Assembly (NCBI GenBank): GCA_030446435.1
Contig: JASURT010000001.1
Span: 1 to 51,595, forward strand
From: Candidatus Ozemobacter sp.
Lineage (GTDB): Bacteria > Muiribacteriota > Ozemobacteria > Ozemobacterales > Ozemobacteraceae
Direction of reading: 5' to 3'
Length of the DNA: 51,595 bases
Under the pieces are notes generated by a model that had not been told where the DNA came from, ran no database searches, and saw nothing but the letters and a program-made list of their open reading frames with translations. Each line of letters starts with the position of its first letter. Position 1 is the stretch's first letter. Of this stretch, positions 18,784 to 46,600 are shown one piece after another. A program made the translations under genes and the position numbers.

Positions 18784-18817
18784 GATTGCAGAAAGAAAAG
18801 TAGAGGTGCGGCAAATA

Positions 18818-24406: not shown

Positions 24407-24433
24407 AACTCCGATCTGCTTAACGGATTAGTA

Positions 24434-28605: not shown

Positions 28606-29348
28606 ATGATCAACCTTGAATCCTGGCGTTTTTCAAGCAGCAGCTTCAGAGCACAGGCGTATTTAGAAAAGCTTTGCTGACCTGCTTTCATTCTTTCGAG
28701 TTGAGACAGAACAGAATCCGGCGCAGGGTTATAAGACTTAATTTCAAAAACTCTGCCAATTCTTTGAAATCGTGCCGGTGTTGCAAAATCGAACTCCTGA
28801 GACAAAATTGGCTGCGAGACAGAAACCCCCGCCAAATCTGCGTCAAAAGTAAATCTCAGGCCCTGAACACCTTTAAATTGCATGGCACGCCTTTTATAAT
28901 AAACCGCCACCACAGGATTCAGGATTTTCCCGCCAAGACATGACAAAAACTTTGAATCAACTGAATTATTCAGCATCAATGCTCTGGCATCAGGCCAGCG
29001 AATGTAAGGCTCGACAAGCTCGCTGCGATCAAAATTCAGTTTAACCCTGACCTTTTTGACGAGCTGACCATTTCGCTGCTTAATTTCAAGACATGGGTCA
29101 TGCCAGAAGTTTTCAGTAAAATTACGATAAAATCTGATTCGTATCTTGGTTTTACAAAATTCACCATGGATCTTATCGTTGAAAAATTCAAGATCAGGCG
29201 TGTCGTAATAGATGCTAAGAACTTCATAATTTCCCTGAAAGCCGTGTGAATCTGCAACTGTCAGTTTTGCCAACAGATTTTGCATTTCGACTATTTGTGC
29301 AGCTGTCAGAAGAAATTTGCTTTCAAAATAAGGTTTTACCCTAGCCAT
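28602..29348 (-). CDS. VTC-domain (polyphosphate-polymerase-like, TTM fold) protein
   Basis: PYFESKFLL...YEVLSIYYDTPDLEFFNDKIHGEFCKTKIRIRFY matches the VTC domain pattern. Start preferred at ATG 29348 (MARVKPYF), which overlaps the CotH stop as ATGGCTAG. The ORF-track start 29378 is also possible. Confidence 0.8.
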   Translation of the reverse strand: MARVKPYFESKFLLTAAQIVEMQNLLAKLTVADSHGFQGNYEVLSIYYDTPDLEFFNDKIHGEFCKTKIRIRFYRNFTENFWHDPCLEIKQRNGQLVKKVRVKLNFDRSELVEPYIRWPDARALMLNNSVDSKFLSCLGGKILNPVVAVYYKRRAMQFKGVQGLRFTFDADLAGVSVSQPILSQEFDFATPARFQRIGRVFEIKSYNPAPDSVLSQLERMKAGQQSFSKYACALKLLLEKRQDSRLII

Positions 29349-31086
29349 TTTTTTTGTTTCTCCAGGAATGTAAAACAACGGGGTTTGGCTTTATTTCAAG
29401 GGTTTCACCAGAGACTTCATCTAAATATTCAAGTTCGATTTTCTTACCGGTGATTGAATTCACACCCTCTCTACGCAGAAATTTCAGACAATCAGCATAT
29501 CGTTCTTCAGACAAGCCAAGCACGTAGTTTTGATAATCAGGCTCAAGCACAAAGTTGCACCAACGACTTTTAAGCATTAGCCACAGCGGCGCATCAGCAG
29601 GTTTTTCGCCCAGCCCGGGAAAAAATTGCTGAACGCTGTAAAACTCAGGCAAAACAGAATCTAAGCGGTTATCGAAGTCAAAGTCGGGCAGAATAGCATT
29701 CCCGAAGCCTTTGAAATCGAAAGAAATGGGGCTATGCCCTTTAACTCTTACCAGAACATGGGTAAACCATCGACCGGCAATGTTCGATCTTTGCGGCAGT
29801 TTGATAATCTGCCCGGTTGTGGCATCGAGAACTTCAAGCAAATACTTTCTTCTGGCCGCCATAAAATCAAGTAACCTCTGGGCGTCAGCCAGCTGTGTTT
29901 CAGGGGCAACCGGGATCTTTCGCGAAAAAAGAACGATCGGAACATTTACGAGCGCACTCGCATAGGGTTCTTGATAATAAAGTGGCCGAAGAATCTTCAA
30001 AAAATTTTTAACTGTTTTTTCCATTGCTTCAGAGCCAAGCTCAGAATTCAACAGGCGATACAGAATAAGATTTCTTTTGTATTGAAATTCAGGATTACGA
30101 AAAAAAGCATTGAGTAAAGGGGTAAGAAATTCGTAAGGCGGCACCCTTATATCAACCTCTTTATGAGTTGCCGCCATAGAAGTGATGACACCAAAGCCGG
30201 TTGAATCAGCAATTGCCGGGAAAAGGCGCGAGGTTTTAAAATCGTAAACCAGAAGATTGCCGAGAAAGTCACTTGTATGAATGCTTGCGATTCCCGACAT
30301 CAAAGCTGACCACAGCGCCATACGATCAACGTCAACCAGCTTCGAAAATTTTTCCAACCCCGCCAGATCGACTGGCGTTTTAACCATATTCAACAAGCTG
30401 GTAAGCGCTGACAAAGCAGTTGAATCATCAGTTTCCAATGTACTACGAATTTCCCAGAGATTTGGATGCAACCACATTTTCGAATTCCGCATGTTTCCTT
30501 CAATTACCGAACAGCGCTCTAATCCCTGATTAAACAAAGTTTGTGGGTTCATTGGTTCTGCAAGATGGTAAAGACCGCGGTAATCACCATTCAGATTTAC
30601 CGTCGCGAGAACGGTTCTGGGTGACGGTACATTCATTCTGACCGCAATGTTGTCGGCGACTAGATTTGCAAGCATCGATGCATCATCAGGGTTGATAAAA
30701 TCAAAAATGCCGCGTGAATTGTATTTTCGATCGCCTTTAAGACGCATTCTAAAGGAAGGTTTGCGCTTATCCCAGTTCCAGGCGTGGGTTCCTCTGATTC
30801 GTATCTCGGCCTTAAATTTAACAGGCTTTCGATTTATCACCATTTCGGCATCCTGATAAACGAAAAAGCTTTCGGGGCGATCTGAAAAAAAGAATTCGTA
30901 ATCGTCTTCATTCAGTCCTATGGTGAAGTGGTCGACACTGAAAGGCCGATATGATGAGGCTTTTGGCCGATCAACCACAGCTGAAGTTTTCGATTCGGGC
31001 CTTGAAAGAAAGAAAAAAGACAGCATAACGCCGGTAATCAGCAGCCAACCCGCAATGGCTTTTATCTTTCTAACCCTGAACTTCAT
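29341..31086 (-). CDS. CotH kinase-family protein with an N-terminal membrane anchor/signal
   Basis: KPSFRMRLKGD...FDFINPDDASMLANLVADNIAVRMNVPSPRTVLATVNLNGDYRGLYHLAEPMN is the characteristic CotH core. N-terminal IAGWLLITGVMLSFFFL. Confidence 0.85.
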   Translation of the reverse strand: MKFRVRKIKAIAGWLLITGVMLSFFFLSRPESKTSAVVDRPKASSYRPFSVDHFTIGLNEDDYEFFFSDRPESFFVYQDAEMVINRKPVKFKAEIRIRGTHAWNWDKRKPSFRMRLKGDRKYNSRGIFDFINPDDASMLANLVADNIAVRMNVPSPRTVLATVNLNGDYRGLYHLAEPMNPQTLFNQGLERCSVIEGNMRNSKMWLHPNLWEIRSTLETDDSTALSALTSLLNMVKTPVDLAGLEKFSKLVDVDRMALWSALMSGIASIHTSDFLGNLLVYDFKTSRLFPAIADSTGFGVITSMAATHKEVDIRVPPYEFLTPLLNAFFRNPEFQYKRNLILYRLLNSELGSEAMEKTVKNFLKILRPLYYQEPYASALVNVPIVLFSRKIPVAPETQLADAQRLLDFMAARRKYLLEVLDATTGQIIKLPQRSNIAGRWFTHVLVRVKGHSPISFDFKGFGNAILPDFDFDNRLDSVLPEFYSVQQFFPGLGEKPADAPLWLMLKSRWCNFVLEPDYQNYVLGLSEERYADCLKFLRREGVNSITGKKIELEYLDEVSGETLEIKPNPVVLHSWRNKKNG

Positions 31087-31101
31087 CGCCGAAACTCTCG
31101 A

Positions 31102-31773
31102 TCAATCAAGAAGAACAGATGCTTTTATATCGGCATCGATATCACAAATTTGCTTTATAAGGAGAGAAGATTGAGATTCTTCTTTCAAGGTAACTTCGAT
31201 AAGCATTTCAGAGTATTTTGAATCGGCAAGATTTTCTTCGCTCAATAGTCGATGATTCAAAACAGAACTCTCGATTTTTTCGACAATTTTGCCGCTGAGC
31301 TCTGATTTCAGCGGGTAAGCTACCCTGAGCATTGCCACCCTGGTCATGGGCGCGTCAGGCATAAATCTTTCTACCAGAACGATAAAAATCGCAAATAAAG
31401 CCGCTGCGCCGGTGGCGATGGCGAAATATCCGCTACCGCAAGCCATACCTACCGCAATAGACATGAAAAGATAAGCTAGATCATTGGTGCTTTTAACGGC
31501 GGTTCGAAATCTGATCAGGCTAAGTGCGCCAATAGCGCCGAAAGCGCGAGCAAGACTGTTGCCTATCACAGCCATTATCAGACTGACAATTGCGCCAAGA
31601 AAAATCATTGTTTTAGCCAGATTTTTATCGCTTGCCGCATTTGCCGGCGAAATTCTAAGCAGGCGGCTGAGAAAGGCGCAAAGCAAAAAGGCCAGAATCA
31701 TGCCCGCAAAAACATCATATGCGTTTAAATCAATCATTTTCAATAATGGCGGCGAGAATTGATTTGTGTTCAT
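31102..31773 (-). CDS. DUF4956-family integral membrane protein
   Basis: LSLIRFRTAVKSTNDLAYLFMSIAVGMACGSGYF matches the DUF4956 core. Start placed at ATG 31773 (GAGG 5 nt upstream); the ORF-track start at 31803 is a TTG. Confidence 0.8.
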   Translation of the reverse strand: MNTNQFSPPLLKMIDLNAYDVFAGMILAFLLCAFLSRLLRISPANAASDKNLAKTMIFLGAIVSLIMAVIGNSLARAFGAIGALSLIRFRTAVKSTNDLAYLFMSIAVGMACGSGYFAIATGAAALFAIFIVLVERFMPDAPMTRVAMLRVAYPLKSELSGKIVEKIESSVLNHRLLSEENLADSKYSEMLIEVTLKEESQSSLLIKQICDIDADIKASVLLD

Positions 31774-31908
31774 AAAAACCTCATCTGCATCGTTGTGCAA
31801 CAATCTGTTTTTATACAGTATAAAGTAAAACCTAATAATGTAATAGAGCTAAAATTTCGGGATCTAATTCGTTGGTTAAAATAAGCATATTATGTTATTC
31901 TTTAATAT

Positions 31909-32631
31909 ATGAAACGGGGAAAATTGCTGCTATTAATACTGCTGTTGATGATTGGTGCATCGCAGATCAAACAGGCTTTTGCCTGCAGCCTTGCAGTACA
32001 TGACTGGAAACTTGTTTTTTTCATGAAGCTGCCAATCAGCGCTCCCATTTTTCCTCTTGCTGAATTCAATTTTCTCAAGGCCAATTTTCGCGAAAAACCT
32101 GCTGACAAGGTTTTCTGGGTTTCAAAGCATGGTTGGCTGAACCATTTTCTTTCGGGGTTCGTTCATGCCATACCGGGCTGGCCTGCAGAAATGACCTGGA
32201 ATCTGATCAATTCTCAAACTTCTATTCTGGGGCTTGCTCAGCAAAACAGTTCAGATGCCACAGCCCCGATAATTATGGGTAGCGACCTGAATTTTCTTAA
32301 AATCGCTTTTTTTTCTGATTACAATTCAAATTACAGCTGCCACCAGTTGGTAGTAATGAACAACAGCAGAATTCGCGGGGTTCTGGTAAATCCTGACACC
32401 CCCTGGGCCCAGGAAATGAACGGAATGTCCTGGGTCTCTCTGATTTTTTATCAGCTGCCTTATCCCGGCCGAATTATGTCTTTTTCTGCTTTTCCTTATC
32501 AGTCGGCAAGAGTTAGCCTTTTCGAAGATCATGATTACGTAGAAAGCCTTTTGATGCATAAATTATTAAAACGCAGGCCAGACATGGAAATAGACCCTTT
32601 TATTTTTGATTTTCCGGAGTTACCAGACTAA
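31909..32631 (+). CDS. hypothetical secreted protein, first gene of the pseudopilin/Skp-like locus
   Basis: Signal peptide MKRGKLLLLILLLMIGASQIKQAFA. W/F/P-rich with no family recognised. Its stop overlaps the next start (TAATG). No Shine-Dalgarno motif upstream. Confidence 0.65.
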   Translation: MKRGKLLLLILLLMIGASQIKQAFACSLAVHDWKLVFFMKLPISAPIFPLAEFNFLKANFREKPADKVFWVSKHGWLNHFLSGFVHAIPGWPAEMTWNLINSQTSILGLAQQNSSDATAPIIMGSDLNFLKIAFFSDYNSNYSCHQLVVMNNSRIRGVLVNPDTPWAQEMNGMSWVSLIFYQLPYPGRIMSFSAFPYQSARVSLFEDHDYVESLLMHKLLKRRPDMEIDPFIFDFPELPD

Positions 32632-33299
32632 TGTGTAAAAATTTTTTGCATCTGTTAAGTTTTTTTGTCATATTTTTGTCTTTTTCTGCAGAAGCGCAAA
32701 CCTTTAAGGTACATGACCTTGAAAGGCTGATAAAAAATCATCCCATGATGAAAAACTACGACCCGAAAACGAACCGCTTCAGAAATACTCCGAGTGAAGC
32801 CAGACCGCTGGAAGAAATTGATGCCGGTATAATCTCGACGAAAGAGGAAATTTCCGCTCTCGAAAAAGAGAAAAAAACCGTTTTAGGCTCTTCGATGAAA
32901 AAAACTCTCGACGCAGAAGCAGAAAAAGAGCTCTGGAAGAAGCTTAACGACATGGGCAACAGAATAAAGGAATTGAAACAAAACCTGCTCGATTTAACCG
33001 AACTACAGGCCACCAACGGGGTCCCGCCGGCATCGAGATTGTTGCCGATTGCCCGTGAAATACTTCTGGATATCAAAGAAGAGATTACGACAAATGAAAA
33101 CGAAATAGTATTGAACTATTTGCCCAGATTCTACCAACCACCCCCAAACCTGATTAAAAACCCTCTTAAAAACTTTTTTGCAAATCCAGACCAAACCGAA
33201 AGTCTTTTAAACTATATTAAACATGCCAATCTAATGTCGCTTCTTTTTTCAGGCGTCGCTGCGCCAGTTCTTTACAATGAAAGGAATCTGAATAACTGA
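32631..33299 (+). CDS. Skp/OmpH-like periplasmic chaperone paralog 1 (short form)
   Basis: Signal peptide, then FKVHDLERLIKNHPMMKNYDP (compare E. coli Skp KIAIVNMGSLFQQV), a long K/E-rich coiled coil, and ENEIVLNYL near the C-terminus (compare Skp DIDLVVDAN). Confidence 0.55.
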   Translation: MCKNFLHLLSFFVIFLSFSAEAQTFKVHDLERLIKNHPMMKNYDPKTNRFRNTPSEARPLEEIDAGIISTKEEISALEKEKKTVLGSSMKKTLDAEAEKELWKKLNDMGNRIKELKQNLLDLTELQATNGVPPASRLLPIAREILLDIKEEITTNENEIVLNYLPRFYQPPPNLIKNPLKNFFANPDQTESLLNYIKHANLMSLLFSGVAAPVLYNERNLNN

Positions 33300-34237
33300 T
33301 GAAAAATATTTACCGACTTATCACTATATTCATCTGCCTTTCGCTTGCATTTTCTGCACAGGGCGCAGTTCGTAAGATCGGAAAAGTGAATCTGGGCCTG
33401 GCAGTGAGTCTTCACCCCCAGATGTCATTGTTCGATTTCGACCGAATGGGCTTTTTCAAAATCGCGCCCGGCCTATCAGAAGAGGAATTCATCAATGAAC
33501 TGAATAAGCTTAAAAATGCCCCGGTTTCGCAAGAATTTGCCAGACAAGAAGCCGAACTTCAAAAATCCCTAGCTGAACTCGACCGCAAAAAGGCCGCTTT
33601 AATGGATAAAATGGTCGGCATAACCTTAGAAGAAGGTCAAAAGCTTGAAAAGCAGTTGAATCAGGTCTCCATCGAATCTGAACAACTGAGAAAGAAATTG
33701 TCAGACATTGAATATCAGAGGCTTTGCCCCGATCTCACCTCTCCGAAAGAAACCCGTGAGACACTTAACAAAATAGAGAAAGAAGTAGTTTCTGAATTGA
33801 AGAAACTGGCTGAAGAAAAAGGCTATGAGCTGGTTCTTAATTCTTCAATAACCATGCCGTTCAATTTTCCGGTCAAATATTCATCAGGAGAGCTTTATGG
33901 ACTGGGTGTTCCAGGCATTGACTTCAGCCTGTTTTATTCGTTTCTGGCCAATAAAGACCATATTCTTCCCGGTGATGAAATGCCTGAATCAAGAAAACTG
34001 GTAAACTGGCTTGAACTTATCAATTCTCCTGACGCTCTGAGCATGTTGCCTTTAAAGCCCTACCCGTTGGTATTGCATGGCGGTGAAGATTTCACATCTG
34101 ATCTGATTCGGACTGTTTATAAAAATCACAAAATTGACCAGAGAGTTTTACAGGCAGTAATGGCCGTTCTTGACACATTGAAGCAACACGAAAAGAATTT
34201 TGATTCAAATATTGAAAGTCTGATTGGTCCCAAATAA
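33299..34237 (+). CDS. Skp/OmpH-like periplasmic chaperone paralog 2 (extended C-terminus)
   Basis: KIGKVNLGLAVSLHPQMSLFDF, a coiled-coil body, KGYELVLNSS, then after an insertion of about 70 aa VLHGGEDFTSDLIRTVYKNHKID (compare the Skp C-terminus DVKDITADVLKQVK). Confidence 0.65.
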   Translation: MKNIYRLITIFICLSLAFSAQGAVRKIGKVNLGLAVSLHPQMSLFDFDRMGFFKIAPGLSEEEFINELNKLKNAPVSQEFARQEAELQKSLAELDRKKAALMDKMVGITLEEGQKLEKQLNQVSIESEQLRKKLSDIEYQRLCPDLTSPKETRETLNKIEKEVVSELKKLAEEKGYELVLNSSITMPFNFPVKYSSGELYGLGVPGIDFSLFYSFLANKDHILPGDEMPESRKLVNWLELINSPDALSMLPLKPYPLVLHGGEDFTSDLIRTVYKNHKIDQRVLQAVMAVLDTLKQHEKNFDSNIESLIGPK

Positions 34238-34284
34238 TTAATGGCACTAAATTTGCGTTTACTAATCCCAGGGAGAAAAATACA

Positions 34285-35097
34285 ATGAGAAATTTCAGAG
34301 AAAACAAATCGGGCTTCACTCTGGTTGAAGTTCTCATTGCTGCCGGCGTTCTCGGCCTTTTTCTCACCGGATTGTTTTCATTTTACCGAATGGGAAGCCG
34401 GATGTTCATGTCCGGCAGCTGGAGGCTTCAGAAACAAAAAGAAGCCGAGAGATTTCTGGTCGTGCTTAAAGAGCGAATTGAACAGGCTTCCAATGCGACT
34501 GCCATAAACCCGACCTCTGACCCCCAGATGGTCGTTTCGCAATCACCTTTTGTCGTATTAAAAGACAACACAGCAGTTGCAGACATCAAAGCTGATCAGC
34601 GTCTGATGCTTTTCAGCGTATGCAAGCCAGACATGAGCGCCTTTGGCACCAACACGGGCATTCCAGGCCAGGGCCCCGGCCTGATTCTTTACCATTGCCT
34701 CATGGCCCGACCAGCTGAAAAAAATCTTTACACTCTTTATTTTCATGCAAATACTCAACAGGTTGCCAATAACGGAATAGACTATTTCAATACCTCAGCG
34801 GTATTTTACCCGGATTTAACCAAGTTTTCAGCCCCACTGGGCAACTTTGGCGCTGCGCCATCGGCCTTTTCACTTGGTGGAGCTCCTTTCACCATTAAAC
34901 TTTCTGATGTTGTACTGGCAAGCTTCAGCGTTGAAATAGCTTCAGGAACAGGTGGTCTTCAGGAAGTCGAAAAAGTTGTCGGTATTTCAATTCAATGTCA
35001 ACACCCAAAATATGAGCAAACTCAGGTTGTTCACGGGGTAAAAGCCAAGGTCGACTACTCTGTTCCCGTTGTCGAAAAGGATTTAGGAGATTTCTAG
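34285..35097 (+). CDS. prepilin-type N-terminal cleavage/methylation-domain protein (GspJ/PilW-sized pseudopilin)
   Basis: Canonical class III signal: KSG|FTLVEVLIAAGVLGLFLTGLF (Gly -1, Phe +1, Glu +5). 270 aa. Confidence 0.85.
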   Translation: MRNFRENKSGFTLVEVLIAAGVLGLFLTGLFSFYRMGSRMFMSGSWRLQKQKEAERFLVVLKERIEQASNATAINPTSDPQMVVSQSPFVVLKDNTAVADIKADQRLMLFSVCKPDMSAFGTNTGIPGQGPGLILYHCLMARPAEKNLYTLYFHANTQQVANNGIDYFNTSAVFYPDLTKFSAPLGNFGAAPSAFSLGGAPFTIKLSDVVLASFSVEIASGTGGLQEVEKVVGISIQCQHPKYEQTQVVHGVKAKVDYSVPVVEKDLGDF

Positions 35098-35676
35098 ATG
35101 AATAAACATATCAGAAAAATTTCATCGAGATCGGCCATGACCCTGACAGAAATAATTCTGGCCATGGCGTTACTGGCTTCGGCCTTCATTCCCATCATCG
35201 GGGTAATGGGTTCGTCAATGAAAGTAACCGAAAAGGACAACCGTACAATCAGAGCGGTTAACCTCTGTCAGGAAAAAATGAACCAGGCTTTGCAGTTTCC
35301 GTTTGGAATACTCGAAAAAGATGCAAACCCAACCAAAGTCTATGGGCAAAACAGCCAGGAAGTTATTCAATCGAGCACGGGTGCAAATAAAATCATTCTA
35401 ACCCTCGGCCCTGAAGAAATTGACGGCTTTGAATTCAGAGCAGAACTGAAAGTTCAGGATCGCCCGGGCACTTTTGTCGTTCCAATGTATGATCCGTTCG
35501 AAAAGGCTAAGCCGGCCAATAGAACCGACCCCAGCAAATGGGGCTGGAGCGAAGAAACCATTGCCTACAACAAAATGTATTACCAGTATACAATGACGAT
35601 TTTCTGGAGTGATAAAGGCGACAGCCAACAGAAAGAATACTCGTTGTCTTCATTCAAATCGAAGGTGAGAGAGTAA
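35098..35676 (+). CDS. pseudopilin-like protein with a non-canonical leader junction (Ala at -1)
   Basis: SRSA|MTLTEIILAMALLASAFIPIIGV has Glu +5 and the hydrophobic helix, but Ala replaces the invariant Gly -1. 192 aa (GspI/PilV-like size). Confidence 0.7.
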   Translation: MNKHIRKISSRSAMTLTEIILAMALLASAFIPIIGVMGSSMKVTEKDNRTIRAVNLCQEKMNQALQFPFGILEKDANPTKVYGQNSQEVIQSSTGANKIILTLGPEEIDGFEFRAELKVQDRPGTFVVPMYDPFEKAKPANRTDPSKWGWSEETIAYNKMYYQYTMTIFWSDKGDSQQKEYSLSSFKSKVRE

Positions 35677-35677
35677 T

Positions 35678-36181
35678 ATGAATAAAACCCGTAAAAATTC
35701 GAAAAAGGGAATGGCACTGGTCATGGCGCTGGTGTTTGCTGTTGTTCTTCTGCAGATGGCCATTGCTTTCAGCAGCATGACCCAGACAAGCAAACCCCAG
35801 ACGGTTCAGATCGACGAAAGAATTAAGCTCGATTACCTTGCCCACGGCCTAACTGAACTGGCTCTTCTAAAATTTCAACTCTACCCTGGAGATTACTACG
35901 CCTGCTGGGAGGCCCATGAACTTGGCACAGACAACTACCTGAACCGTTTTACCATCAATGCACCTGAATTTACAATTGCCAACTTTACCGACTCAAAATC
36001 TTCTTTCAATGATCAGGCAATCGGTATTCAGCTTGCCAGTATGGCAATTTATACAGACAACCGCTGGAAAACAGAAGCGCTTTTCATTCAGGCAGGCGCA
36101 GAGTACACTGACCAGTTTGGCCGTGAAATATCTAAAGATGCTGTTCGCATCGTATCGTTACAGAGAGTTCTAAAAAAGTAG
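35678..36181 (+). CDS. pseudopilin-like protein lacking Glu+5 (GspK/PilX-like class)
   Basis: KKG|MALVMALVFAVVLLQMAIAF has Gly -1 and a hydrophobic helix, but Met sits at +5, as in the GspK/PilX-type minor subunits. 167 aa. Confidence 0.6.
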   Translation: MNKTRKNSKKGMALVMALVFAVVLLQMAIAFSSMTQTSKPQTVQIDERIKLDYLAHGLTELALLKFQLYPGDYYACWEAHELGTDNYLNRFTINAPEFTIANFTDSKSSFNDQAIGIQLASMAIYTDNRWKTEALFIQAGAEYTDQFGREISKDAVRIVSLQRVLKK

Positions 36182-36194
36182 CAAGAGGAAACAG

Positions 36195-37166
36195 ATGACT
36201 GTAAAAAGCAAAAAAATTCAAAGCCCGATTGTAATCCTGGCAGGGCTGTTTATATTAATCGCTGCTTGCGCCTGGCAAGCAAATGCTGCAACCAAAGCAC
36301 TTATCGGCAAAATAGACCTGAAAGCAGTCATACTGCTTCACCCGGGCATGAGATCATATGACCCTTACCTGCAAGCCTTCAAGGTTGATCCGGCAAAGGT
36401 TCCCCAGACGATTATGCAGCAAAAATCAGATCAGCATAAGGGCGAAATCGAAAGTCTTACAGCCCAGGCAAGACTCTTGCAAGGTCGCATTCATGAGCTT
36501 CAGCGAAATTTCAATCGCGAAATAGACCGTATTTCAAGCAACTACCTCGACGGGCTTGATACACTTGCTACAGGCCCAAGAGCTCTGAAACGACAGCAGT
36601 ATGAGTTATCCAAGAATCGCGCAGAAACTTCGTTCAATGCAAAACTTCATGCACTCGGCGCTCAGTTGTCACAGGCCGAAGAAAGACTGAACCGACTCGA
36701 AAAGATTGCATATCATGTGGGTTACACCGATCCCGAAAACACGCAAAAGCAGTTTTTGGCGATCATAAACGAAATTCGCCAATACACTCAGCAAATTGCC
36801 AATCAAAAAGGCATAGAAGTGGTGCTGAACTCTAAAAGCCGCGAACTTAAAGCTCTTAAAAACGAAAATCCTGTTCTGGCACCTGACCTTGATTATGAAA
36901 AAATCTTTCGCCAGCCTTTTCCAAATGAAATTCGCAATGATTCTGCTGCCATTAGCGGCTATTACCAGAATATCACCAGTCTGGCCCATAACTGGCTCAG
37001 CCATGGTTCTGACATTCTGCAGCCATTTTCAAATCAGATTATCGATAACGACATTTTTATCGGCGGCACTGATCTTACCGTAGAAGTGCTTGCCGCCATT
37101 TTCAGAACTTACAAAGTCGACTCGAATATTGGCAACGCCGTTATTCAGGCGATTTACAACAATTAG
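36195..37166 (+). CDS. Skp/OmpH-like periplasmic chaperone paralog 3 (extended C-terminus)
   Basis: LIGKIDLKAVILLHPGMRSYDP, a coiled-coil body, KGIEVVLNSKS, and IFIGGTDLTVEVLAAIFRTYKVD, which aligns with paralog 2 VLHGGEDFTSDLIRTVYKNHKID. Confidence 0.65.
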   Translation: MTVKSKKIQSPIVILAGLFILIAACAWQANAATKALIGKIDLKAVILLHPGMRSYDPYLQAFKVDPAKVPQTIMQQKSDQHKGEIESLTAQARLLQGRIHELQRNFNREIDRISSNYLDGLDTLATGPRALKRQQYELSKNRAETSFNAKLHALGAQLSQAEERLNRLEKIAYHVGYTDPENTQKQFLAIINEIRQYTQQIANQKGIEVVLNSKSRELKALKNENPVLAPDLDYEKIFRQPFPNEIRNDSAAISGYYQNITSLAHNWLSHGSDILQPFSNQIIDNDIFIGGTDLTVEVLAAIFRTYKVDSNIGNAVIQAIYNN

Positions 37167-37197
37167 CATGCCCGCAGGTTTATGAAGGAGGGAGTAT

Positions 37198-40100
37198 ATG
37201 TGTGCCATGATTAAGAAAAGGGGTTTGGTTTTACTGCTATTGCTTATTTCAATTCTATTTTCGGTTACGGCTAACGCCGCCCTGAAACCGGAATATAGAA
37301 GAAATGGCGAATGCTATCTTCTCATCGGTGAAGGCCCTACTTCAATGCGAGGTATTTACCGCCTCAACAACCCGGAAAGGAACAAGCTTTACGACCCACC
37401 CAAATACCTGTTCAAGCCTAACAGCTCGATCGGTTTTTCGGTCGACCTTGAAAGAAAAATCTATACTTTTTCTGAAAAGGTAGTTCCAGGTTACACCATG
37501 CTCAGCGAGCCTCTTAAGCGCCAGGTTCTCGATTCCGGCAGCACAGATCTCGCCGACTGGGGTTATCATGCATATATTCACTACGATCACCGTTCCTGGG
37601 GAAGAAACACCAACGTTTATCGTACAGGCCCCAAAAACCGTTACATTCGCCGAAACGGCAGAGGCTGGTGGCCTTATTTCAGATCAGCCGGCCCCGGTAG
37701 CCCTATTCCCACCCCTGCAGGCAACCCATTGCCGAATGTTCCATCAGTTCCACTCGGAGTATACTCAGGTAAGCGCTGGTATTCGATCCCTAACGGTTCA
37801 TGGTATTCAAGCTGGAGAAGAAAAAGCGCACGCGGCGGCCCTGGCGGTGGTATCTTTTATGTAGTTTACGGCGACAAAGTTACCGGACAACCTCATAACT
37901 GGACCCTCTACACTTATAAACCCGACAATATAAACGCCGACGCACCGAATTACAGCTCGAATGCGGGCTCGGTAGTTGCGGTTTCCTACGACAAAAAAAT
38001 TACCCGCCAGATTTTTGCCGGCTGTCTTGACGGCTGTGGTGGAGCAAGCGGCTCAGGCGGCGGTGTTGCTGACCCTATGGTTAACGACCTTGCCTTCATG
38101 CCCCCGATCAAAGATCAGCCTTCAAGAACCTATTTTTATTCTAGACCAGAAGGAAAATCCGATTATACGGTAACCCTTAACAGAAGTTCTTATGCTCCCC
38201 CTTCGCCTCGTGGAAACCCTATCATCGGAAGCCCCGAAAGCACAGACACCTACTGGATCGGCGTTTCTATGCGAAATGTAAGTTCTGATTACGTCTATTG
38301 TATTGGCACAAACAACATTCGTAACTGGTATAAACAGGCAACCAATTCATCAGGAGCAGGGATCAACATTTCTGCGGTTGCAGTTTCAAATCAATGGAAT
38401 CAGAAGGGCGGTATCGTTTTCGCCTATGATAAACGCGCCAAGGTCGTTTACAAATTTGAACGCTACGAAAACGACCCGAACGAACCGCCCATCTCAAGAA
38501 GCAGATACGAAGGTATCGACGTTTCTGACCTGATGTCTTTGATCAATGCCAGAGCAGACTCTGAGATCGATGATATTAAAGCAGACGGCTTCGGTAGCTT
38601 GTATTTTGCGATGTCTTATCCTTCAAAAAATGTTAACGCCTATGACCCCAGAAAATACTTCAAGGTCAATGACACGATCAGAATTTACCCTGATCCGGTT
38701 CAGGACCCCGAAGAACTGGCAACAGTATGGCTGATTTATCGTCAGCAATATGGTAAAGCCGTTTTTGAAAGAAGCATCTATAGCTCCGTTCCCAAAGAAA
38801 TCGGCAAAAAGGTCTTTGCAGAAAGATACTACAATCTGCATGTGAAACTTCCTCATGCCGGTATGGACGAACTTGTGAAATCAGGACCAGTACCGCACAA
38901 CAACGTTGAAAACATTCTTTCAAGCTGGTCAGCCCAGATTGGTAACAACGACGGAATAATCAACAAGGACGATTTCTCATACGGCAGTAAAGGCCTTTAC
39001 TACGATTACAATTTCGGCGACCCTGGCCATGCCAAACTTGCGGTTATCAATATCCCGACACCGCCCGAAGTCATAAGCCTTGGTGGCAAAAAATCATGGC
39101 TCGACATCTGCGGCCCCTATTCTGATTACCCGGTTTCAACAGATATGAACAGCACCCAGCAGGACCAGAATCTTATTTCTCCTCCACCTGCAAAGCTTTC
39201 ACTTGATACAGTCTATTTCTATATGGTTGAAAACTACCCGTTAACCACAGGTGCCTGGAACCCCACCGACCAACCCGACTGGGATGGCGACGGGCGCAGA
39301 GGCGGGTTCATCACTTCAATCAGTGACACAAATTCTTCGACTGCAGGCGGCAGCGTGGCTTATCGCTGGAGAACCTGGCACGTTGAAGATCTCTTCGGTA
39401 ACCCGGTTTATCCTCCGGTACCTTATCCGAAAGTCGCTGCCCCTAGAAACGGCACCAACACAGGGCAAGATCACTTCACCGTCTTTTATTCACCAGTAAG
39501 AGGTAAGTATATTATCACTTGCCAGGTAATCTATGACTGGTATGACTATGACCTGCTACCATTCGGAAGTACAGTTGATGACCTTCCATCAGTCTTCAGA
39601 TCAAATGCCAAAGCCAGCCCTGTCACCACAGGTGGTATGGCCATGCAAACCGCCAATAGTCAGTTGAATTCGATCATGAGCACCCCTGATTTCAAATTCA
39701 TGCAGGCTTCTGCCAGTGCCTACATCTCTTACATTACTGAAAGAATGGAAACAGGCGCGAATGATTCATACTTCGCCTGTGTTCCTGTAGTTGCTGGTGT
39801 TGCAACAGAACCACAGCCCATTCCTTCGGATTTGATCGCGAGAATCGACAGATGTGACGGCTGGGCCCCTAACAACGTTGCTAAATCAACTCACTGGTCA
39901 GCAGCATCTGACTATCACGGCATAGTAGCCGGAAAGCCCTATTTCTGGCGAATCAATCTTGCATCGCAAACCGTTTTGTTTGACGATATCAGTAAGTCAG
40001 GAGCGTCAAGAAACTTCATCGTTAAGAAAATGACCACCCCTGAATATGATAAAGACGGCAACCAGATCAACACTCTTTTCGTCAATACCAGAGGCACCAA

Positions 40101-42006
40101 AGTAACCTTTGACAATGTCGGCGATGACCTGCGCTGGAAAACCGAAGCAAGCAATCCTGACGCAATCGAACTCGAATCATATCTTGAATATGCAATTCCT
40201 GATGACGAAGGCAACCCCAAGATTGTAAAACTGCCGCTGCTTGCATCTTCAAGTAGCGCATTGCCTTCAAAGAAGCCGATTATTGCTTCTACTTCGACCG
40301 ACCTGCCGCCAACCGACCCATACTTCGCCGAGCTGGTCATTAAAATGACACGCACAATTCTTTATGACTTGAGAATCAAGAATAAAGACGGCCGAGTCAT
40401 GGGTATGGCGACAAACATTCCGCTTCGTTTTACCCTTTACGGTAAAACAAAGGTTCTGATTGTAGACAAACAGGCGCCCAAGATTCTCTATGCCCATACC
40501 AAACCGGTCAATCTTTTTGCTGACGCTGGTTTTGCAATCCAGGCAGGCAAAGGCCCCCTCGGTGGTAACCCGGCATCAGTCAGTATCAGATTGTCTGATA
40601 ACAACCCCTGGGAAGCAGTCGATAAAGTGGTCGGCATTAAAAGCAAAAGCACCTGGTTGAGTAACTACAATCATAACCAGGGAGCTCCGACCGGCGCTCC
40701 GACCTCAAGGTTCAATTATAAGCCGGTATTTGCCAAGACCTTGAACCGCAACGTTTCATTGTCATTCGACCGGGCCAGTCGACTCGATTCTGGTATCGTA
40801 AAACTCTTCCCACCTGACCAGGCCGCGCCAACTTCTGCACCGACAGTTAAACATAACTTTGCTCAGGCGTTTGGTGATATGTATACTCATAAATACATAA
40901 TGAGCGGCGGCAACTGTATACCTGTCGAAAAGCGACTGCAGCGCGAGTACCAATCTACCAAAGATGTAATCAATGGCACAGAACTTTACTTTGCCACCAT
41001 CGGCTTCAGAATTCCGCTGAACTTTCTTGCCGTCGATTCTAAGAACATCCACACCAACGTATTACCCAAAGGCTATGCCAACAATACTCCTGGCTACGAT
41101 GACGGCGGCAAAATCAGACCTTACAAGTTCTATCTGACTGCCAAAGATTCATCGGGCAACCTGCTCAGTAATAAATCTCTGAATATCGCAATTCATCCCC
41201 GGGATATTCATAAGCCCAACCCCTATGGCTTCTTTACTGAACACAAAGATGATACGACCAGCTACTTCCCGCTGCTTAGAGCCGCAACCGATGCTTCTGA
41301 TTCCGACAGCTCGCCACAGAACGTCGATCTAAACTCATTTAAAGAAAATTATTTCGACAGCAACAACTGGCTTGCCGACAAAACAGGCAGCATCAAGGTT
41401 AAAAACAGCGACGGACTTGCGTTCCCATACTATAAAGCCCTGCCTTCACTTGGAGACAACATTAAATTCAAGTTCACCAGTGATTCGACTCTTGATTACT
41501 ATGAAAAGCTGATTGAAAAGAAAATTCCGCCAACTTTCATCGAAGACAACGTCGAGTTCACAATTGGCTGTGGTGTCAGCGATAACGCCGGCGAAGCCGT
41601 AGCCACGCTGACCTTCAAATACATTGACACCAAAGGCAAGGCCCAGACTCGCGAAACAAGCTCAAGCTGGACAAGTGCAATGAAAGTTGCCGGCACTACC
41701 GGCAGCGACCCCGATATTGCTTCAAGTCCAACCGAAATAAGAGGACTTTTCCGTGGTGACACCGCTAATTATCCGATGGCGGTACCGGTTAAGATCGTTG
41801 CCGAAGACAACGCCAGAGACTGGGATTATTACATCGGTCAGGGCGGGGAACTTGCTGATCCGGATAATCCCTGGAGCGACTGGAAATGGGGTCCGTATAA
41901 AAAAGGTAACGATAAAAAGAATGTCAGAACCTTTAAAACCAGTATTCCGGTATATGGCACTGATTTGATTATCAGGACCATCGACAAGGGAATGAGAAAC
42001 AAATAA
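37198..42006 (+). CDS. 1602-aa secreted protein of unknown family (candidate cargo or tip protein of the locus)
   Basis: Strong RBS AAGGAGGGAG (37185-37194). Sec signal ...LLLLLISILFSVTANA|A. Composition rich in W, Y, P, G and N. DWDGDG (DxDxDG-type Ca-binding-like loop) encoded at 39277-39294. The operon terminator follows. Confidence 0.85.
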   Translation: MCAMIKKRGLVLLLLLISILFSVTANAALKPEYRRNGECYLLIGEGPTSMRGIYRLNNPERNKLYDPPKYLFKPNSSIGFSVDLERKIYTFSEKVVPGYTMLSEPLKRQVLDSGSTDLADWGYHAYIHYDHRSWGRNTNVYRTGPKNRYIRRNGRGWWPYFRSAGPGSPIPTPAGNPLPNVPSVPLGVYSGKRWYSIPNGSWYSSWRRKSARGGPGGGIFYVVYGDKVTGQPHNWTLYTYKPDNINADAPNYSSNAGSVVAVSYDKKITRQIFAGCLDGCGGASGSGGGVADPMVNDLAFMPPIKDQPSRTYFYSRPEGKSDYTVTLNRSSYAPPSPRGNPIIGSPESTDTYWIGVSMRNVSSDYVYCIGTNNIRNWYKQATNSSGAGINISAVAVSNQWNQKGGIVFAYDKRAKVVYKFERYENDPNEPPISRSRYEGIDVSDLMSLINARADSEIDDIKADGFGSLYFAMSYPSKNVNAYDPRKYFKVNDTIRIYPDPVQDPEELATVWLIYRQQYGKAVFERSIYSSVPKEIGKKVFAERYYNLHVKLPHAGMDELVKSGPVPHNNVENILSSWSAQIGNNDGIINKDDFSYGSKGLYYDYNFGDPGHAKLAVINIPTPPEVISLGGKKSWLDICGPYSDYPVSTDMNSTQQDQNLISPPPAKLSLDTVYFYMVENYPLTTGAWNPTDQPDWDGDGRRGGFITSISDTNSSTAGGSVAYRWRTWHVEDLFGNPVYPPVPYPKVAAPRNGTNTGQDHFTVFYSPVRGKYIITCQVIYDWYDYDLLPFGSTVDDLPSVFRSNAKASPVTTGGMAMQTANSQLNSIMSTPDFKFMQASASAYISYITERMETGANDSYFACVPVVAGVATEPQPIPSDLIARIDRCDGWAPNNVAKSTHWSAASDYHGIVAGKPYFWRINLASQTVLFDDISKSGASRNFIVKKMTTPEYDKDGNQINTLFVNTRGTKVTFDNVGDDLRWKTEASNPDAIELESYLEYAIPDDEGNPKIVKLPLLASSSSALPSKKPIIASTSTDLPPTDPYFAELVIKMTRTILYDLRIKNKDGRVMGMATNIPLRFTLYGKTKVLIVDKQAPKILYAHTKPVNLFADAGFAIQAGKGPLGGNPASVSIRLSDNNPWEAVDKVVGIKSKSTWLSNYNHNQGAPTGAPTSRFNYKPVFAKTLNRNVSLSFDRASRLDSGIVKLFPPDQAAPTSAPTVKHNFAQAFGDMYTHKYIMSGGNCIPVEKRLQREYQSTKDVINGTELYFATIGFRIPLNFLAVDSKNIHTNVLPKGYANNTPGYDDGGKIRPYKFYLTAKDSSGNLLSNKSLNIAIHPRDIHKPNPYGFFTEHKDDTTSYFPLLRAATDASDSDSSPQNVDLNSFKENYFDSNNWLADKTGSIKVKNSDGLAFPYYKALPSLGDNIKFKFTSDSTLDYYEKLIEKKIPPTFIEDNVEFTIGCGVSDNAGEAVATLTFKYIDTKGKAQTRETSSSWTSAMKVAGTTGSDPDIASSPTEIRGLFRGDTANYPMAVPVKIVAEDNARDWDYYIGQGGELADPDNPWSDWKWGPYKKGNDKKNVRTFKTSIPVYGTDLIIRTIDKGMRNK

Positions 42007-42020
42007 AACTGGAATGAAAA

Positions 42021-42057
42021 GCGGTCTGCTCTATTGGGGCAGACCGCCTTTTTTTTA
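42021..42057. terminator. bidirectional rho-independent terminator (giant gene / M42 peptidase gene)
   Basis: Perfect 9-bp stem GCGGTCTGC (42021-42029) / GCAGACCGC (42039-42047), then a CTTTTTTTTT run. GAAAA lies upstream for the opposite direction. Confidence 0.8.
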
Positions 42058-43249: not shown

Positions 43250-43621
43250 ATGGCCAGGGCAATTCAAAATTTATTCGTAAAAGCCTCAGAAATCTGCCGC
43301 AGCAGAGCGACGGCAACTTTCTTTCTCACACTGATGATTGAAGCCGTAACATTGCTTTTTCGCTTCGGGTTTGGCCTTAAATCGACTCAGCATACGGCAT
43401 CTACGGTTGGTCGACTGACATTCGGCATCCGAATTCATCATGGTTACATAGGGCTTCTAATGCTGATAATTCTTGTGATTCCGCGGCTGCGAAAATCTTC
43501 ACTTGAACCCCTGATAACCGTAATTGGCACAAGTCTTTTCGTTTCAGATATTATTCACCATACCATTCTTTATTACGTTACCGGCTCTGCCGATTTAGAC
43601 CTGATTTACCCTAATTACTGA
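43250..43621 (+). CDS. hypothetical small membrane protein, translationally coupled to the first helicase-nuclease gene
   Basis: About 3 hydrophobic segments (TFFLTLMIEAVTLLFRFGF, YIGLLMLIILVIP, LITVIGTSLFV). Its stop overlaps the next ATG (TGATG at 43619-43623). Confidence 0.55.
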   Translation: MARAIQNLFVKASEICRSRATATFFLTLMIEAVTLLFRFGFGLKSTQHTASTVGRLTFGIRIHHGYIGLLMLIILVIPRLRKSSLEPLITVIGTSLFVSDIIHHTILYYVTGSADLDLIYPNY

Positions 43622-46600
43622 TGAGCCTTCAAGAAGACCTTAAACGACTTAATTCTCAACAAGCTGATATAATCAGAAAATTCAACCGGCCATCTCTGGT
43701 TGTTGCCGGACCGGGAACGGGTAAAACCAGAACCGTTTCGGTCTTGATCGGCGATTTACTGCATAAAGACATTCGCCTGAAAGAAATTCTGGCTCTGACC
43801 TTCTCAGACAAAGCCGCCACAGAACTGAGAGAAAGAGTTCTGCAATACTATCCGCACAGCTTTGATGAATGCTGGATCTCAACCTTTCATTCTTTCTGCG
43901 CCAGAATTTTACGCGAACAATATTTCAGAATTTTTATAAAACCAGACTTCAAGCTTCTTACAGGTTTCAAAGAAGCTCTTATGATGTCAGGAATCTGCAA
44001 GAAACAAGATGCAAACGCTTTTTCAGAATTTGGCAAGGTTATGCATAAACGTGGTTTTCAGCAGGAAATTCTGACATTCATATCTCTGCTGAAGTCGAAT
44101 CTTGTCAGCTGTGAAGAATTCGCGGCAACGGTTCAAAAGCTTGAGGACCCGGGCAAGCGAACCAGAACCAGACTTCATGAAATTGCAAATCTTTATCAAC
44201 TTTATGAAAAAGAGCGTATTAAAACCGGTTATCTTGACTTTCGTGATCTGATTTCTTTAACGATCAAGGTCATGCAGATTCCAGAAGTAGCTGCGAGCTA
44301 TCGCAGTAAATTCAAAGTCATTCTCGTAGATGAATTTCAGGATACCGACCCGGCACAGTATTTACTTCTATCTTTGCTGAAAGGTGAAGGCGAGAATGTT
44401 AAGATCGCCGTCATCGGTGACCCCAAACAGAGTATCTACAGATTTCGCGGTGCTGACCCGGGAATGATGACTTTCAACGGACCATTCAGAAAAGAGTTCA
44501 AGGCAAGGGTTTTTCCGCTGCAAATTAATTACCGATGCGCCAGAGAAATTGTCGAAACCGCCATAAGGCTTGACTGGAAAGAAAAGTCTGAAATGGATAA
44601 AAGCCTCGTGGCCTGCAGTGAAAATCAGGGATTCGTCAAACTTTTCAAAGCCCGAGATGAGCTTGAAGAAGCCAGATTTCTAACCAGAAAAATTGCTGCT
44701 CTGCTGATCTACGGCGAAACCCGCAAATACAGGCCGGAAGAAATAGCCATTCTGGTCAGAAACAATTATCAGGTAGATCTTCTGGCCGAAAACCTTCAAG
44801 CGCTGCATATTCCATTCGAGATTGCCGGTGATATGAAATTTTTCAGATCAGAAGAAGTCATTGTTCTGGCTTCAATGCTGAAAATTGCAGCTCTGCAGGG
44901 CAATGAGCGAGAAGAAGCAATGAAAAGGGCTTTTTCATCACCTCTTTTTGAACTTGATCCGCTATGGGTACAGGCCACGCTTACCGAAGCCGGGCCGCAA
45001 AACAGCATGGCTGAGATTCTCGAGAAAATCAGTGAAGAAAAATTTGCTGAGCTTCCCGATGCCTCTGAAGAGCTGAAGGTAAAAGCGGGCTATTTTGCAG
45101 AATCAATCAAGATTCTCGACCAGTGCGCCAGCCTTCCCCTTAACGCGGTGTTCGCCCGACTTTTACTTAGTCTTAAAGGGGTCATGGTAAACCCATCGTC
45201 TGAACCAGCCCGCAACGCACTTCATTTTAGAAACATGATTGCAGATTACTGCGAAATGTTTCTGCGCCAAAATGGCCGAGAAGCACTGGTAAGCGATTTG
45301 ATTTCTGAATTCGATGAATGGCTTACTTATTATGCCTCTACCCTCGAACAAGATCAGACTTTCAGCCAGACCGGGGTAAAGATAATGACCGTTCACCAGT
45401 CAAAGGGGCTCGAGTTTCCCGTTGTCGCTATACCTGGCCTTTGTGAAGGACAGTTTCCGGTGAAATTAAGAGAGAATTTACTGATAAACACAGGCAACAT
45501 CGAACTGCTGAAAAACACATTCAATTCTCAAAATCGGGCGGTCAGCTTTTTCAATCCTTACCCCTGCAATTATGAAGATCATCTCGAAGAAGAACGAAGA
45601 CTGTTTTTTGTTGCGCTTACAAGAGCAAAAGAAGGCGTTATAATGTCTTACCCTCTCAGGCAAGGAACAGATATAGCAATTCCGGCACCATATTTAAAAG
45701 AGGTTGGTTTGATTGCCAGCCATGAAGAAACCGAAACAAGACCGCTTAATATAAGCGAGTTTCGCACCAGACTCGCCTCTTTATCAGTAGAAGATCTTAA
45801 AGAAATTGAACCTCAGCTGCAAACACTTGACAGGCTGATTGACAGCGAAATTTCGGTTCACGGTATCAGGCCACGAAATTTTGAAAAACCAGGGCTCGAC
45901 GAGACCAGTCTGCCAGATAACTTTGTCTTTTCTGCAAGCTCTTTGAAAAACTATGTTGATTGCCCAAGACGCTTCTTCTTTTTGAATATTCTAAAAATAA
46001 AAGACCCGCTTCAGGCCAAACAATCCTGGTTTCAGACCGGAAATGCTTTTCATGCAATTCTTGAAGAACTGCACCGCCCCGGAAGCATATGGGAAAACGG
46101 CAAGCAGCCAGACGATAACGACCTCGAAAAATTGTTCACAGATAAGGCAGTGCCGCACCTTGAAGATTTAGAGTTCTTTCAAAGATACCAGGAAATTGAA
46201 AGCATTAAGCAATCTTTACCTAACTACATCAGCGCAATATTTGAAACGAATCAGCTTCCTCCCAGGCAAACCCGGGGCGTCGAAGAGGGGTTCGAATTCA
46301 CCTTTCACAACCACCGTTTCAGAGGCAGATTCGACCGACTTGTAGAAACAGAAAGCGGCCTTCTGGTAATCGACTACAAAACCACGCAAAATGCAGGCCT
46401 GAGTTCAGAAAAGGTCTTCGAACGGGCCTTTACCGAAAACGAATTCCCGCAGGAGATTCAAATGCCTCTTTATTTGCTGGCATGCAAGCAAATGGGTGCG
46501 AAAAATGCATGCGCGACTCTTCTTTATGTCCGCCAGGACCTCTATAAAAGAAAACATCGTCAAATGCATCCGGGATTCATGCGATCAGCTGCCCTGAATT

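Follow-up and report, generated by a model that had tools for sequence, protein, structure and literature searches.

The stretch of DNA analysed here, 51,595 nucleotides of contig JASURT010000001.1 from Candidatus Ozemobacter sp. (hereafter the window), a member of the uncultured phylum Riflebacteria (Rifleibacteriota), carries a compact cassette of eight genes, g1 to g8, all on the + strand at positions 31909-42006. They encode pilin-like proteins, relatives of the periplasmic protein Skp and one giant exported protein, and most likely form a so far undescribed module that supplies the tip or the cargo of a pilus or secretion machine whose genes lie elsewhere. The cassette starts with g1, an exported protein of 240 amino acids (31909-32631), followed by g2, a Skp/OmpH-like paralog of 222 amino acids (32631-33299), and g3, a Skp/OmpH-like periplasmic protein of 312 amino acids (33299-34237). 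The three pilin-like genes come next: g4, a putative minor pseudopilin resembling GspJ, PilW and ComGF (34285-35097, 270 amino acids); g5, another resembling GspI, PilV and ComGE (35098-35676, 192 amino acids); and g6, which lacks the glutamate at position +5 (Glu5; 35678-36181, 167 amino acids). The last two genes are g7, a further Skp/OmpH-like paralog (36195-37166, 323 amino acids), and g8, the giant Sec-exported protein of 1,602 amino acids (37198-42006). Export signals are present on all eight products. They are Sec-type signal peptides on g1, g2, g3, g7 and g8, prepilin-type leaders with Glu5 on g4 and g5, and a GspK-like leader without Glu5 on g6.

An earlier note, made from the sequence alone, had described these genes as coupled and had read their N-termini as G↓FTLVE in g4, A↓MTLTE in g5 and G↓MALVM without Glu5 in g6 (the arrow separates positions -1 and +1). 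The open reading frames (ORFs) match its coordinates exactly, and its description of junctions and N-termini is borne out. Successive junctions measure -1, -1, +47, 0, +1, +13 and +31 nucleotides, and coupling can be read in the letters TAATG at 32631 (g1/g2), TGATG at 33299 (g2/g3) and TAG-ATG at 35097/35098 (g4/g5). The note was also right about the bounds of the cassette, which it placed at an AT-rich divergent promoter region and a strong terminator. Between g1 and the divergent DUF4956 gene upstream (31102-31803) lies a presumed promoter region of 105 nucleotides (31804-31908), with a guanine-cytosine (GC) content of 22.9%, compared with 44.9% in the window; its best sigma-70-like match is weak (9/12, at 31810-31839). 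The operon ends at an intrinsic terminator on the + strand (42021-42057), made of a hairpin with a 12-bp stem, eight G-C pairs and a 3-nucleotide loop (42021-42047) followed by eight T. The gene beyond it, encoding an M42 peptidase, is convergent.

The arrangement is conserved in related genomes, and the concern that it might be a chance juxtaposition can be set aside. A survey of one genome per GTDB species gave 60 loci; at each of them we called ORFs and classified these with iterated hidden Markov models (HMMs) built from the eight window proteins. Where the phylum is named it is almost always Riflebacteria, and many of the genomes are labelled just "uncultured bacterium". About two dozen loci, which we call type A, have all eight families. 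They come in four gene orders, mostly that of the window, the others being g1g2g3-g7g8-g4g5g6, g4g5g6-g7g8-g1g2g3, and g4-g8 followed by inverted g3g2g1. Because of these alternative orders, the type A set can be seen to move as three blocks, [g1 g2 g3], [g4 g5 g6] and [g7 g8]. The flanking genes of the cassette vary among lineages, and throughout Riflebacteria the eight genes have been inherited together. The same families in about 60 loci, the tight junctions and the preservation of gene content in rearranged orders practically exclude an adjacency of unrelated genes by chance or an artefact of annotation. The region's best sigma-70-like match (TTGACA-17-AAGAAT, 10/12, 34170-34198, + strand; a consensus match only) lies within the 3' end of g3, at the g3/g4 junction. 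Because it falls exactly at the boundary between [g1 g2 g3] and [g4 g5 g6], blocks that are rearranged in other genomes, it may be an internal promoter for g4-g8.

A second form of the cassette, type B, is complete in twelve loci and has the order g5-g6-g4-g2-g3, then a giant of about 1,400 amino acids and a conserved gene encoding about 240 amino acids. At least 13 genomes have both forms. Homology between the giants of the two types extends over the full length (hhalign probability 100%, E 1e-135), and the remaining components have diverged to a similar degree (17-30% identity). Because the giants align throughout and the other components diverged about equally, the two types point to an ancient duplication of the whole module. 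Copy number also varies at a smaller scale, with tandem extra giants or partial cassettes in some rumen, gut and digester lineages. Two or three tandem giant paralogs with extra Skp-like and pseudopilin genes were seen at L001:15512-25187, L015:4874-14998, L016 and L059, in metagenome-assembled genomes (MAGs) from anaerobic digester, rumen, and reindeer and goat gut. These tandem copies point to a lineage-specific expansion. Two MAGs bear odd labels, Candidatus Methylomirabilis sp. (DYKG01, loci L007/L039) and Candidatus Avigastranaerophilus sp. (JAZRWI01, L015). As both have the full cassette, with giants 69% and 39% identical to the window's g8, respectively, they are suggested to be mislabelled or misbinned Riflebacteria contigs.

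The earlier note did not recognise this composition as a described system, and we found no description of the module in the searchable literature on Riflebacteria pili or type II secretion, on Skp with pseudopilins and on the Verru_Chthon cassette.

Three of the eight proteins, g2, g3 and g7, had been proposed to be Skp-like paralogs. Profile comparisons indicate that they are indeed paralogs of each other: g3 aligns to g7 with an hhalign probability of 99.9% (E 3.4e-31, 253 columns including a C-terminal GG.D(I/L)T..V motif) and to g2 with 98.9% (E 1.3e-17). Each has a signal peptide and an N-terminal strand that bears an invariant HP.M..(F/Y)D, as well as a long coiled region and a helix-plus-strand segment (...VLN). 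The GG.D(I/L)T..V element is common to g3 and g7, which also have a conserved, family-specific C-terminal extension of about 130 amino acids. The shortest and most divergent is g2, in which the N-terminal motif reads VD..L...HP.M..FD. The relation to Skp is most direct for g3, which scores 32.1 bits against the Pfam model OmpH (PF03938; E 1.6e-7) and misses the cut-off of 32.4 by 0.3 bit. At 12.7 bits (E 0.15) g7 is sub-threshold, and the Pfam scan gave no OmpH match for g2. Hence, this part of the note stands for g3 and for the paralogy, and fails for direct OmpH matches of the window's g2 and g7, whose likeness to Skp would follow from their profile-profile paralogy to g3 and from matches of orthologs. 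OmpH is matched at E<0.1 by 15/20 g3 orthologs and 12/15 g7 orthologs (best E for g7 1.3e-5), and every other family by at most three of the g3/g7 orthologs. About 20 of 71 g3 homologs also have a precomputed PF03938 match, and for some the NCBI or JGI annotation reads OmpH or Skp family. Generic coiled coils, the other identity considered for these genes, were rejected since OmpH is the sole consistently matched family. We accept g3 and g7 as probable Skp-family proteins with a large family-specific extension.

The predicted structure of g3 is consistent with this assignment. The AlphaFold2 model (predicted local distance difference test, pLDDT, 74.5 overall and 85-95 in the core) has the small beta body and long alpha-helical tentacle hairpin of the Skp fold, with strands at 27-30, 51-53 and 178-181 and helices at 78-104, 110-142 and 149-173. 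Its top three Foldseek matches in the PDB are all SkpA chains of 8GL8, the extended T9SS (type IX secretion system) translocon, albeit with weak scores (E 0.13-0.49, probability 0.54-0.72, template modelling score, TM, 0.32 when target-normalised). Profile searches of PDB sequences with the Skp-like genes gave nothing significant and mostly coiled-coil noise (OmpH-like 4KQT, E 0.04). Compared with canonical Skp/OmpH (PF03938), encoded in Escherichia coli by skp beside bamA, the module proteins share the signal peptide, the N-terminal beta strand and the long helical hairpin; for the helix-plus-strand segment (...VLN) there is a local alignment with the IDLVVD stretch of E. coli Skp, and most orthologs match OmpH. 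They differ in being about twice as long, with an insertion, a C-terminal helical domain and the invariant HP.M..(F/Y)D, which in g3/g7 has no alignment to E. coli Skp. Their genes lie with pseudopilins and a giant instead of in a bamA-lpxD context.

The established role of Skp is in outer-membrane protein biogenesis, yet one secretion translocon has a Skp homolog among its parts: SkpA has a C-terminal extension, grips the N-terminus of SprA and is structurally required in the T9SS, where it is a structural element and not a holdase (PMC10994853). By analogy, g2, g3 and g7 might be docking elements, forming a trimer that encloses and orders one terminus of the giant and tethers it to an envelope complex. 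The C-terminal extensions would then make the contacts. Such a role is compatible with either a tip or a cargo module. SkpA, the best match of the g3 model, is likewise a member of the Skp family that is extended at its C-terminus and devoted to an export apparatus; the extension of g3/g7 is conserved, their HP.M motif is foreign to E. coli Skp, and three co-conserved paralogs would fit a fixed hetero-oligomer. However, the Foldseek scores are weak, and type B and the reduced loci described below have only two paralogs. SkpA also belongs to a different secretion system and phylum, and is a homotrimer encoded in a housekeeping operon, unlike three paralogs encoded with their presumed client. 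We regard a purely structural role as distinctly unlikely.

The giant g8 has a Sec signal peptide visible in its sequence, no pilin leader and a mature length of 1,575 residues. It has no match in Pfam or NCBIfam at E<=1, and a profile of 21 homologs found nothing among PDB sequences at E<=10. The AlphaFold2 model of residues 1-1200 (pLDDT 85.9, predicted TM score 0.65) is almost entirely beta, with three very long hairpins. As a multi-domain query, which lowers the sensitivity of such searches, it had no convincing Foldseek match in PDB or BFVD; weak, generic matches of beta-propeller type appeared (E 0.05-0.1), and no PilY1 entry was among the top 50. The earlier note had wondered whether the giant is a routine PilY1 or a known adhesin. 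Profile and PDB-sequence searches, and fold searches with residues 1-1200, gave no such match, and we rejected these identities. We also rejected a repetitive or hypervariable adhesin, as conservation is uniform along the roughly 1,600 residues. The 82 full-length homologs are 29-69% identical, and their source, where named, is nearly always Candidatus Riflebacteria, Rifleibacteriota or Ozemobacteraceae; the few records labelled otherwise (Erysipelotrichia, Pusillimonas) seem to be misbinned or misnamed. Only 101 relatives turned up in an exhaustive HMMER search of 1.84 billion representatives. The giant is a globular, mostly beta protein of a lineage-restricted family without known domain. 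Some proteins of about 470-580 amino acids match only its N-terminal ~550 residues (P0222, P0226, P0229, P0231, P0232 and P0236). One of them (P0229, 577 amino acids, L066:10001-11734) is encoded in a locus without the module; of the others, three come from Riflebacteria. The N-terminal part of the giant may be an autonomous unit.

The earlier note counted three pseudopilins, and the evidence for them is graded. The g4 leader G↓FTLVE is canonical, with Gly at -1 and Glu at +5, and conserved in about 50 loci; g4 exceeds the cut-offs of N_methyl (PF07963; 27.1 bits against 21.2) and of the prepilin domain TIGR02532 (19.8 bits against 16.3). Its family profile aligns to E. coli GspJ over the N-terminal ~60 residues (hhalign probability 93.7%, E 1.9e-7), and its orthologs match ComGF (14/17), GspJ (11/17) and Verru_Chthon cassette protein C (9/17), all under cut-off. 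The leader of g5 has Ala at -1 in the window and reads G↓xTLxE in most orthologs, with Glu5 invariant in their alignment. The matches of the window's g5 are sub-cut-off (N_methyl 11.9 bits, TIGR02532 13.5 bits, ComGE E 1.7e-4, GspI E 0.011), and its orthologs match ComGE (14/20), GspI (14/20), XpsI (12/20), PilV (9/20) and, at E<0.1, TIGR02532 (12/20). The leader of g6, KKG↓MALVMALVF..., follows a pattern (K/R)G↓(M/T/S)A(L/I/V) plus hydrophobic helix that is conserved in all orthologs and resembles E. coli GspK (QRG↓VALLIVLMLL), to which hhalign aligns just 21 residues (23% probability). Lacking Glu5 and a prepilin-domain profile match in 19 orthologs, g6 is called a putative pseudopilin from this N-terminal pattern. 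It always directly follows g5, and we infer that it may be a GspK/PilX-like cap subunit. The trio described in the note thus stands firmly for g4, with g5 below the cut-offs and g6 recognised by its pattern.

For the remaining protein, g1, nothing matched in Pfam, NCBIfam or the PDB sequences. Its 26 homologs are always from Riflebacteria where the source is named, and no relatives of the family could be detected elsewhere. The signal-peptide cleavage site, of AxA type, is followed by an invariant Cys-Ser-Leu-Ala-x-His-Asp-Trp at the mature N-terminus; in the alignment, C26, H31, W33 and a second cysteine, C144, are invariant. The ~240-amino-acid protein encoded downstream of type B cassettes (L039:14167-14883 and orthologs) has a mature start A-C-S-D/E-Y-x-H-x-W, and thus both begin with A-C-S-x-x-x-H-x-W, with an hhalign probability of only 41.6%. 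The N-terminal cysteine could serve for lipid anchoring via an atypical lipobox, act as a nucleophile at the N-terminus or take part in a disulfide. A classical lipoprotein is doubtful, as K, R, E or Q is often found at -2 to -4.

Reduced loci inform on which parts of the module belong together. A distant homolog of the giant in Candidatus Wallbacteria (L065) has two Skp-like genes directly upstream (HMM E 2e-35 and 5e-22), and a lineage with 31% GC (L068) has two Skp-like genes and a giant, flanked by an LptF/G permease and an ABC ATPase. At both of these loci, as in type A and in type B, the gene immediately upstream of the giant is Skp-like; within the gene orders that include g7, this gene adjoins g8 in all except one (L015). 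The pseudopilin trio and g1 were seen in Riflebacteria loci only. Because Wallbacteria and the 31% GC lineage keep just this combination, the Skp-like genes and the giant are the conserved core, and the link with pseudopilins is lineage-specific. The persistence of the pair without an adjacent trio also favours the giant, rather than the pseudopilins, as the client of the Skp-like proteins. The reduced loci have further neighbours of note: an AsmA-like DUF748 protein and an M48 peptidase at L065:4541-9812, and the LptF/G permease and ABC ATPases at L068:6944-17115. These envelope-biogenesis neighbours could hint at an outer-membrane-related role of the core pair, or be a coincidence.

One might go further and propose that the pair has nothing to do with pili, the giant being an envelope protein with its own Skp-type chaperones and the trio a secondary neighbour. 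The reduced loci and the part of Skp in outer-membrane protein biogenesis (PMC10994853) speak for this. Yet in Riflebacteria the trio stays with the pair across two paralogous cassettes, four gene orders and many flanks. Residues 1-1200 of g8 gave no outer-membrane barrel match. Barrel proteins usually end in an aromatic residue, as part of the beta-signal, and the C-terminus of g8 does not. An envelope pair independent of filaments thus seems improbable to us.

If the module serves a filament, the machine that assembles this filament must be encoded elsewhere. The earlier note had reported no assembly machinery nearby, which is correct for the window and most loci. Pfam scans of every credible window ORF of at least 150 amino acids revealed no ATPase, platform protein, secretin or prepilin peptidase, and phmmer searches with E. 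coli GspC-O against all window ORFs matched only g4, through GspJ. We then considered roughly 1.1 Mb of flanking sequence across loci, where a search for the motif GPTGSGKT returned ClpX only. Secretins were found in two loci (L025:20696-22081 and L061:130-2004) and a GspF/PilC homolog in one (L046:20426-21643), and machinery hidden in the flanks was mostly rejected as an explanation. The secretin of L025 (Candidatus Ozemobacter sibiricus) lies 4-6 kb from a type A cassette, that of L061 4-6 kb from one of type B, the interval holding a LytS-type histidine kinase (L061:130-5646), and the GspF/PilC gene of L046 6 kb from a type B cassette. Such proximity is occasional and not conserved. These genes nevertheless place parts of such a machine in the phylum, which counts in favour of a module that serves a filament.

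Taking these results together, we propose, with a probability of roughly 45%, that the cassette encodes a lineage-specific tip or priming module in the style of PilY1, with its own Skp-like holdases, accessory to a type IV filament machine (type IV pilus/type II secretion class) encoded elsewhere. In this scheme, g4 (J-like), g5 (I-like) and g6 (the K-like cap without Glu5) would assemble at the inner membrane into a minimal tip or priming complex of minor pilins. The mature giant would be received in the periplasm by g2, g3 and g7, possibly as a mixed trimer, which would maintain it in a state fit for assembly or dock one end of it. It would then bind atop the pseudopilin trio, as PilY1 does on PilVWX, and polymerisation of the filament would push the complex through a secretin, so that the giant is displayed at the tip or released. 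We infer every physical interaction in this scheme, as well as the final location of the giant.

The closest functional parallel is found in the type IVa minor-pilin/PilY1 sets, such as fimU-pilVWXY1E and clusters 1-3 of Myxococcus xanthus, which occur in several copies per genome and may encode a periplasmic helper, TfcP (PMC8833165). In both cases minor pilins are encoded with a large, Sec-exported, non-pilin protein, a context that g8 shares with PilY1, and several paralogous sets can be found in a genome, apart from the core machine. The precedent of a cluster-encoded helper also applies. The differences are that the module has three pilin-like genes instead of four or five, three Skp-family paralogs instead of a cytochrome-like protein, and the extra g1; the giant also lacks the PilY1/PilC propeller signature (PF05567, no Pfam match at E<=1) and a PilY1 fold match. 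[quoted passage not shown] The most specific sub-threshold matches of g4 and g5 are GspJ and GspI, the g6 leader lacks Glu5 as does that of GspK, and three members would correspond to the minimal I-J-K core. However, no equivalog cut-off is reached: g4-g6 have no GspI, GspJ or GspK match at this level over the globular domain (TIGR01707, TIGR01711, PF03934), and g6 is half the size of GspK, with no T2SSK match. The resemblance to GspI and GspJ would thus support working like these proteins, not membership of their families. Moreover, GspG, C, D, E, F, L and M are all absent from the module operon, and T2SS operons have neither a giant partner nor Skp homologs.

Several observations weigh against a tip module. 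No pseudopilin trio adjoins the Skp-giant pair of Wallbacteria and L068, and L069 has the giant by itself. The uniform conservation of g8 is unlike that of typical tip adhesins, which have variable domains. The fold match of g3 to SkpA is weak even at its best (E 0.13, TM 0.32), and hhalign comparisons with E. coli Skp alone are not significant, with 2-10% probability over the helix-plus-strand segment only. All I/J-type matches are under curated cut-offs and concern mainly the N-terminal helix, and g6 has no profile support as a pilin, with no Pfam match in 19 orthologs and no PDB match. Searches of the ~1.1 Mb of flanks with E. coli GspC-O (phmmer) found no GspE/PilB ATPase and no prepilin peptidase (GspO), and thus no complete machine in any of these genomes. 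Finally, the place of the giant on a filament is drawn purely by analogy, for a protein with no PilY1 domain and no detectable fold relative.

Alternatively, the module could be a cargo-specific part of type II secretion, in which the giant would be the secreted cargo, the I/J/K-like trio a cargo-matched pseudopilus tip that pushes it through a secretin, and the Skp-like paralogs would hold the folded or folding cargo in the periplasm until loading. The sequence evidence is the same as for a tip module. Among the closest matches of g4 and g5 are the T2SS models GspJ, GspI and XpsI; a giant that is globular and uniformly conserved resembles an enzyme or a structural protein rather than a repetitive adhesin; and each giant paralog has its own diverged trio. 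On the other hand, phmmer found no GspC, L, M or E gene near any locus, and the giant has no enzymatic domain detectable by Pfam, NCBIfam or PDB-sequence profile searches. We also know of no T2SS with a separate minor-pseudopilin set per cargo. We consider a cargo module unlikely.

A third set of genes deserves comparison. The Verru_Chthon cassettes (TIGR02596, TIGR02598, TIGR02599, TIGR02600), which we take to be repeated sets of three prepilin-type proteins and one very large protein in Verrucomicrobia and Chthoniobacter, share with the module the weak matches of 9/17 g4 orthologs to cassette protein C. Yet g8 has no match to protein A (TIGR02600) at E<=1, and the best match of the g4 family to TIGR02599 has E 9.1e-5, the window's g4 scoring 12.9 bits against a cut-off of 256.5. 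To our knowledge, these cassettes have no Skp-like genes. Membership was rejected, given the lack of any NCBIfam match of g8 and the distance of g4 from the cut-off. Judged by its sequences, the module would thus work most like a minor-pilin/PilY1 set, while failing membership of PilY1, of the GspI/J/K equivalogs and of Verru_Chthon; only g4 (prepilin domain) and g3/g7 (Skp family) appear placeable in known families.

A bolder version of the tip module is possible, if doubtful. The three Skp-family paralogs would form a dedicated heterotrimeric cage for a giant tip protein of novel fold, which they would hand to a minimal I/J/K-like cap. An older, self-standing Skp-giant device, as in Wallbacteria, would have been coupled to a filament machine by Riflebacteria and then duplicated.

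The rest of the window includes chemotaxis, sigma-factor, LysM-M23 peptidase, AddAB-like helicase-nuclease and aspartate/ornithine carbamoyltransferase-family genes. Just upstream of the module, on the - strand, a divergent three-gene set (28602-31803) encodes a VTC-domain protein, a CotH kinase-like protein and the DUF4956 membrane protein; elsewhere, only the five closest loci have this set upstream. Further upstream, a bacterial alpha-2-macroglobulin of 1,874 amino acids is followed by a bifunctional penicillin-binding protein of PBP1C type (18782-26800), the classic A2M-PbpC pair, and in ten loci the type A cassette has the PBP1C gene as a conserved neighbour. Three tightly spaced genes on one strand (8361-12540) encode proteins of 626 amino acids (no Pfam match), 554 amino acids (CarboxypepD_reg) and 212 amino acids (purple-acid-phosphatase N-terminal domain). 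Downstream of the module, an ORF of 123 amino acids without Pfam match (43250-43621) precedes two adjoining proteins of about 1,075 amino acids (43621-49990), each with a UvrD-like helicase and a PD-(D/E)XK nuclease, resembling an AddA/AddB pair.

Minor-pilin sets and their large partners determine what type IV pili and type II secretion systems bind or export, and how very large partners survive in the periplasm and are loaded is poorly understood. The module links two current topics, how filaments are loaded with tip proteins and which non-canonical roles Skp has. Restricted to uncultured lineages, it provides for an uncultured phylum a well-defined and strongly conserved gene set whose chaperone-client and pilin-partner pairs are directly testable. 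It would extend the reuse of the Skp scaffold in secretion machines, known from the T9SS, to the world of type IV filaments.

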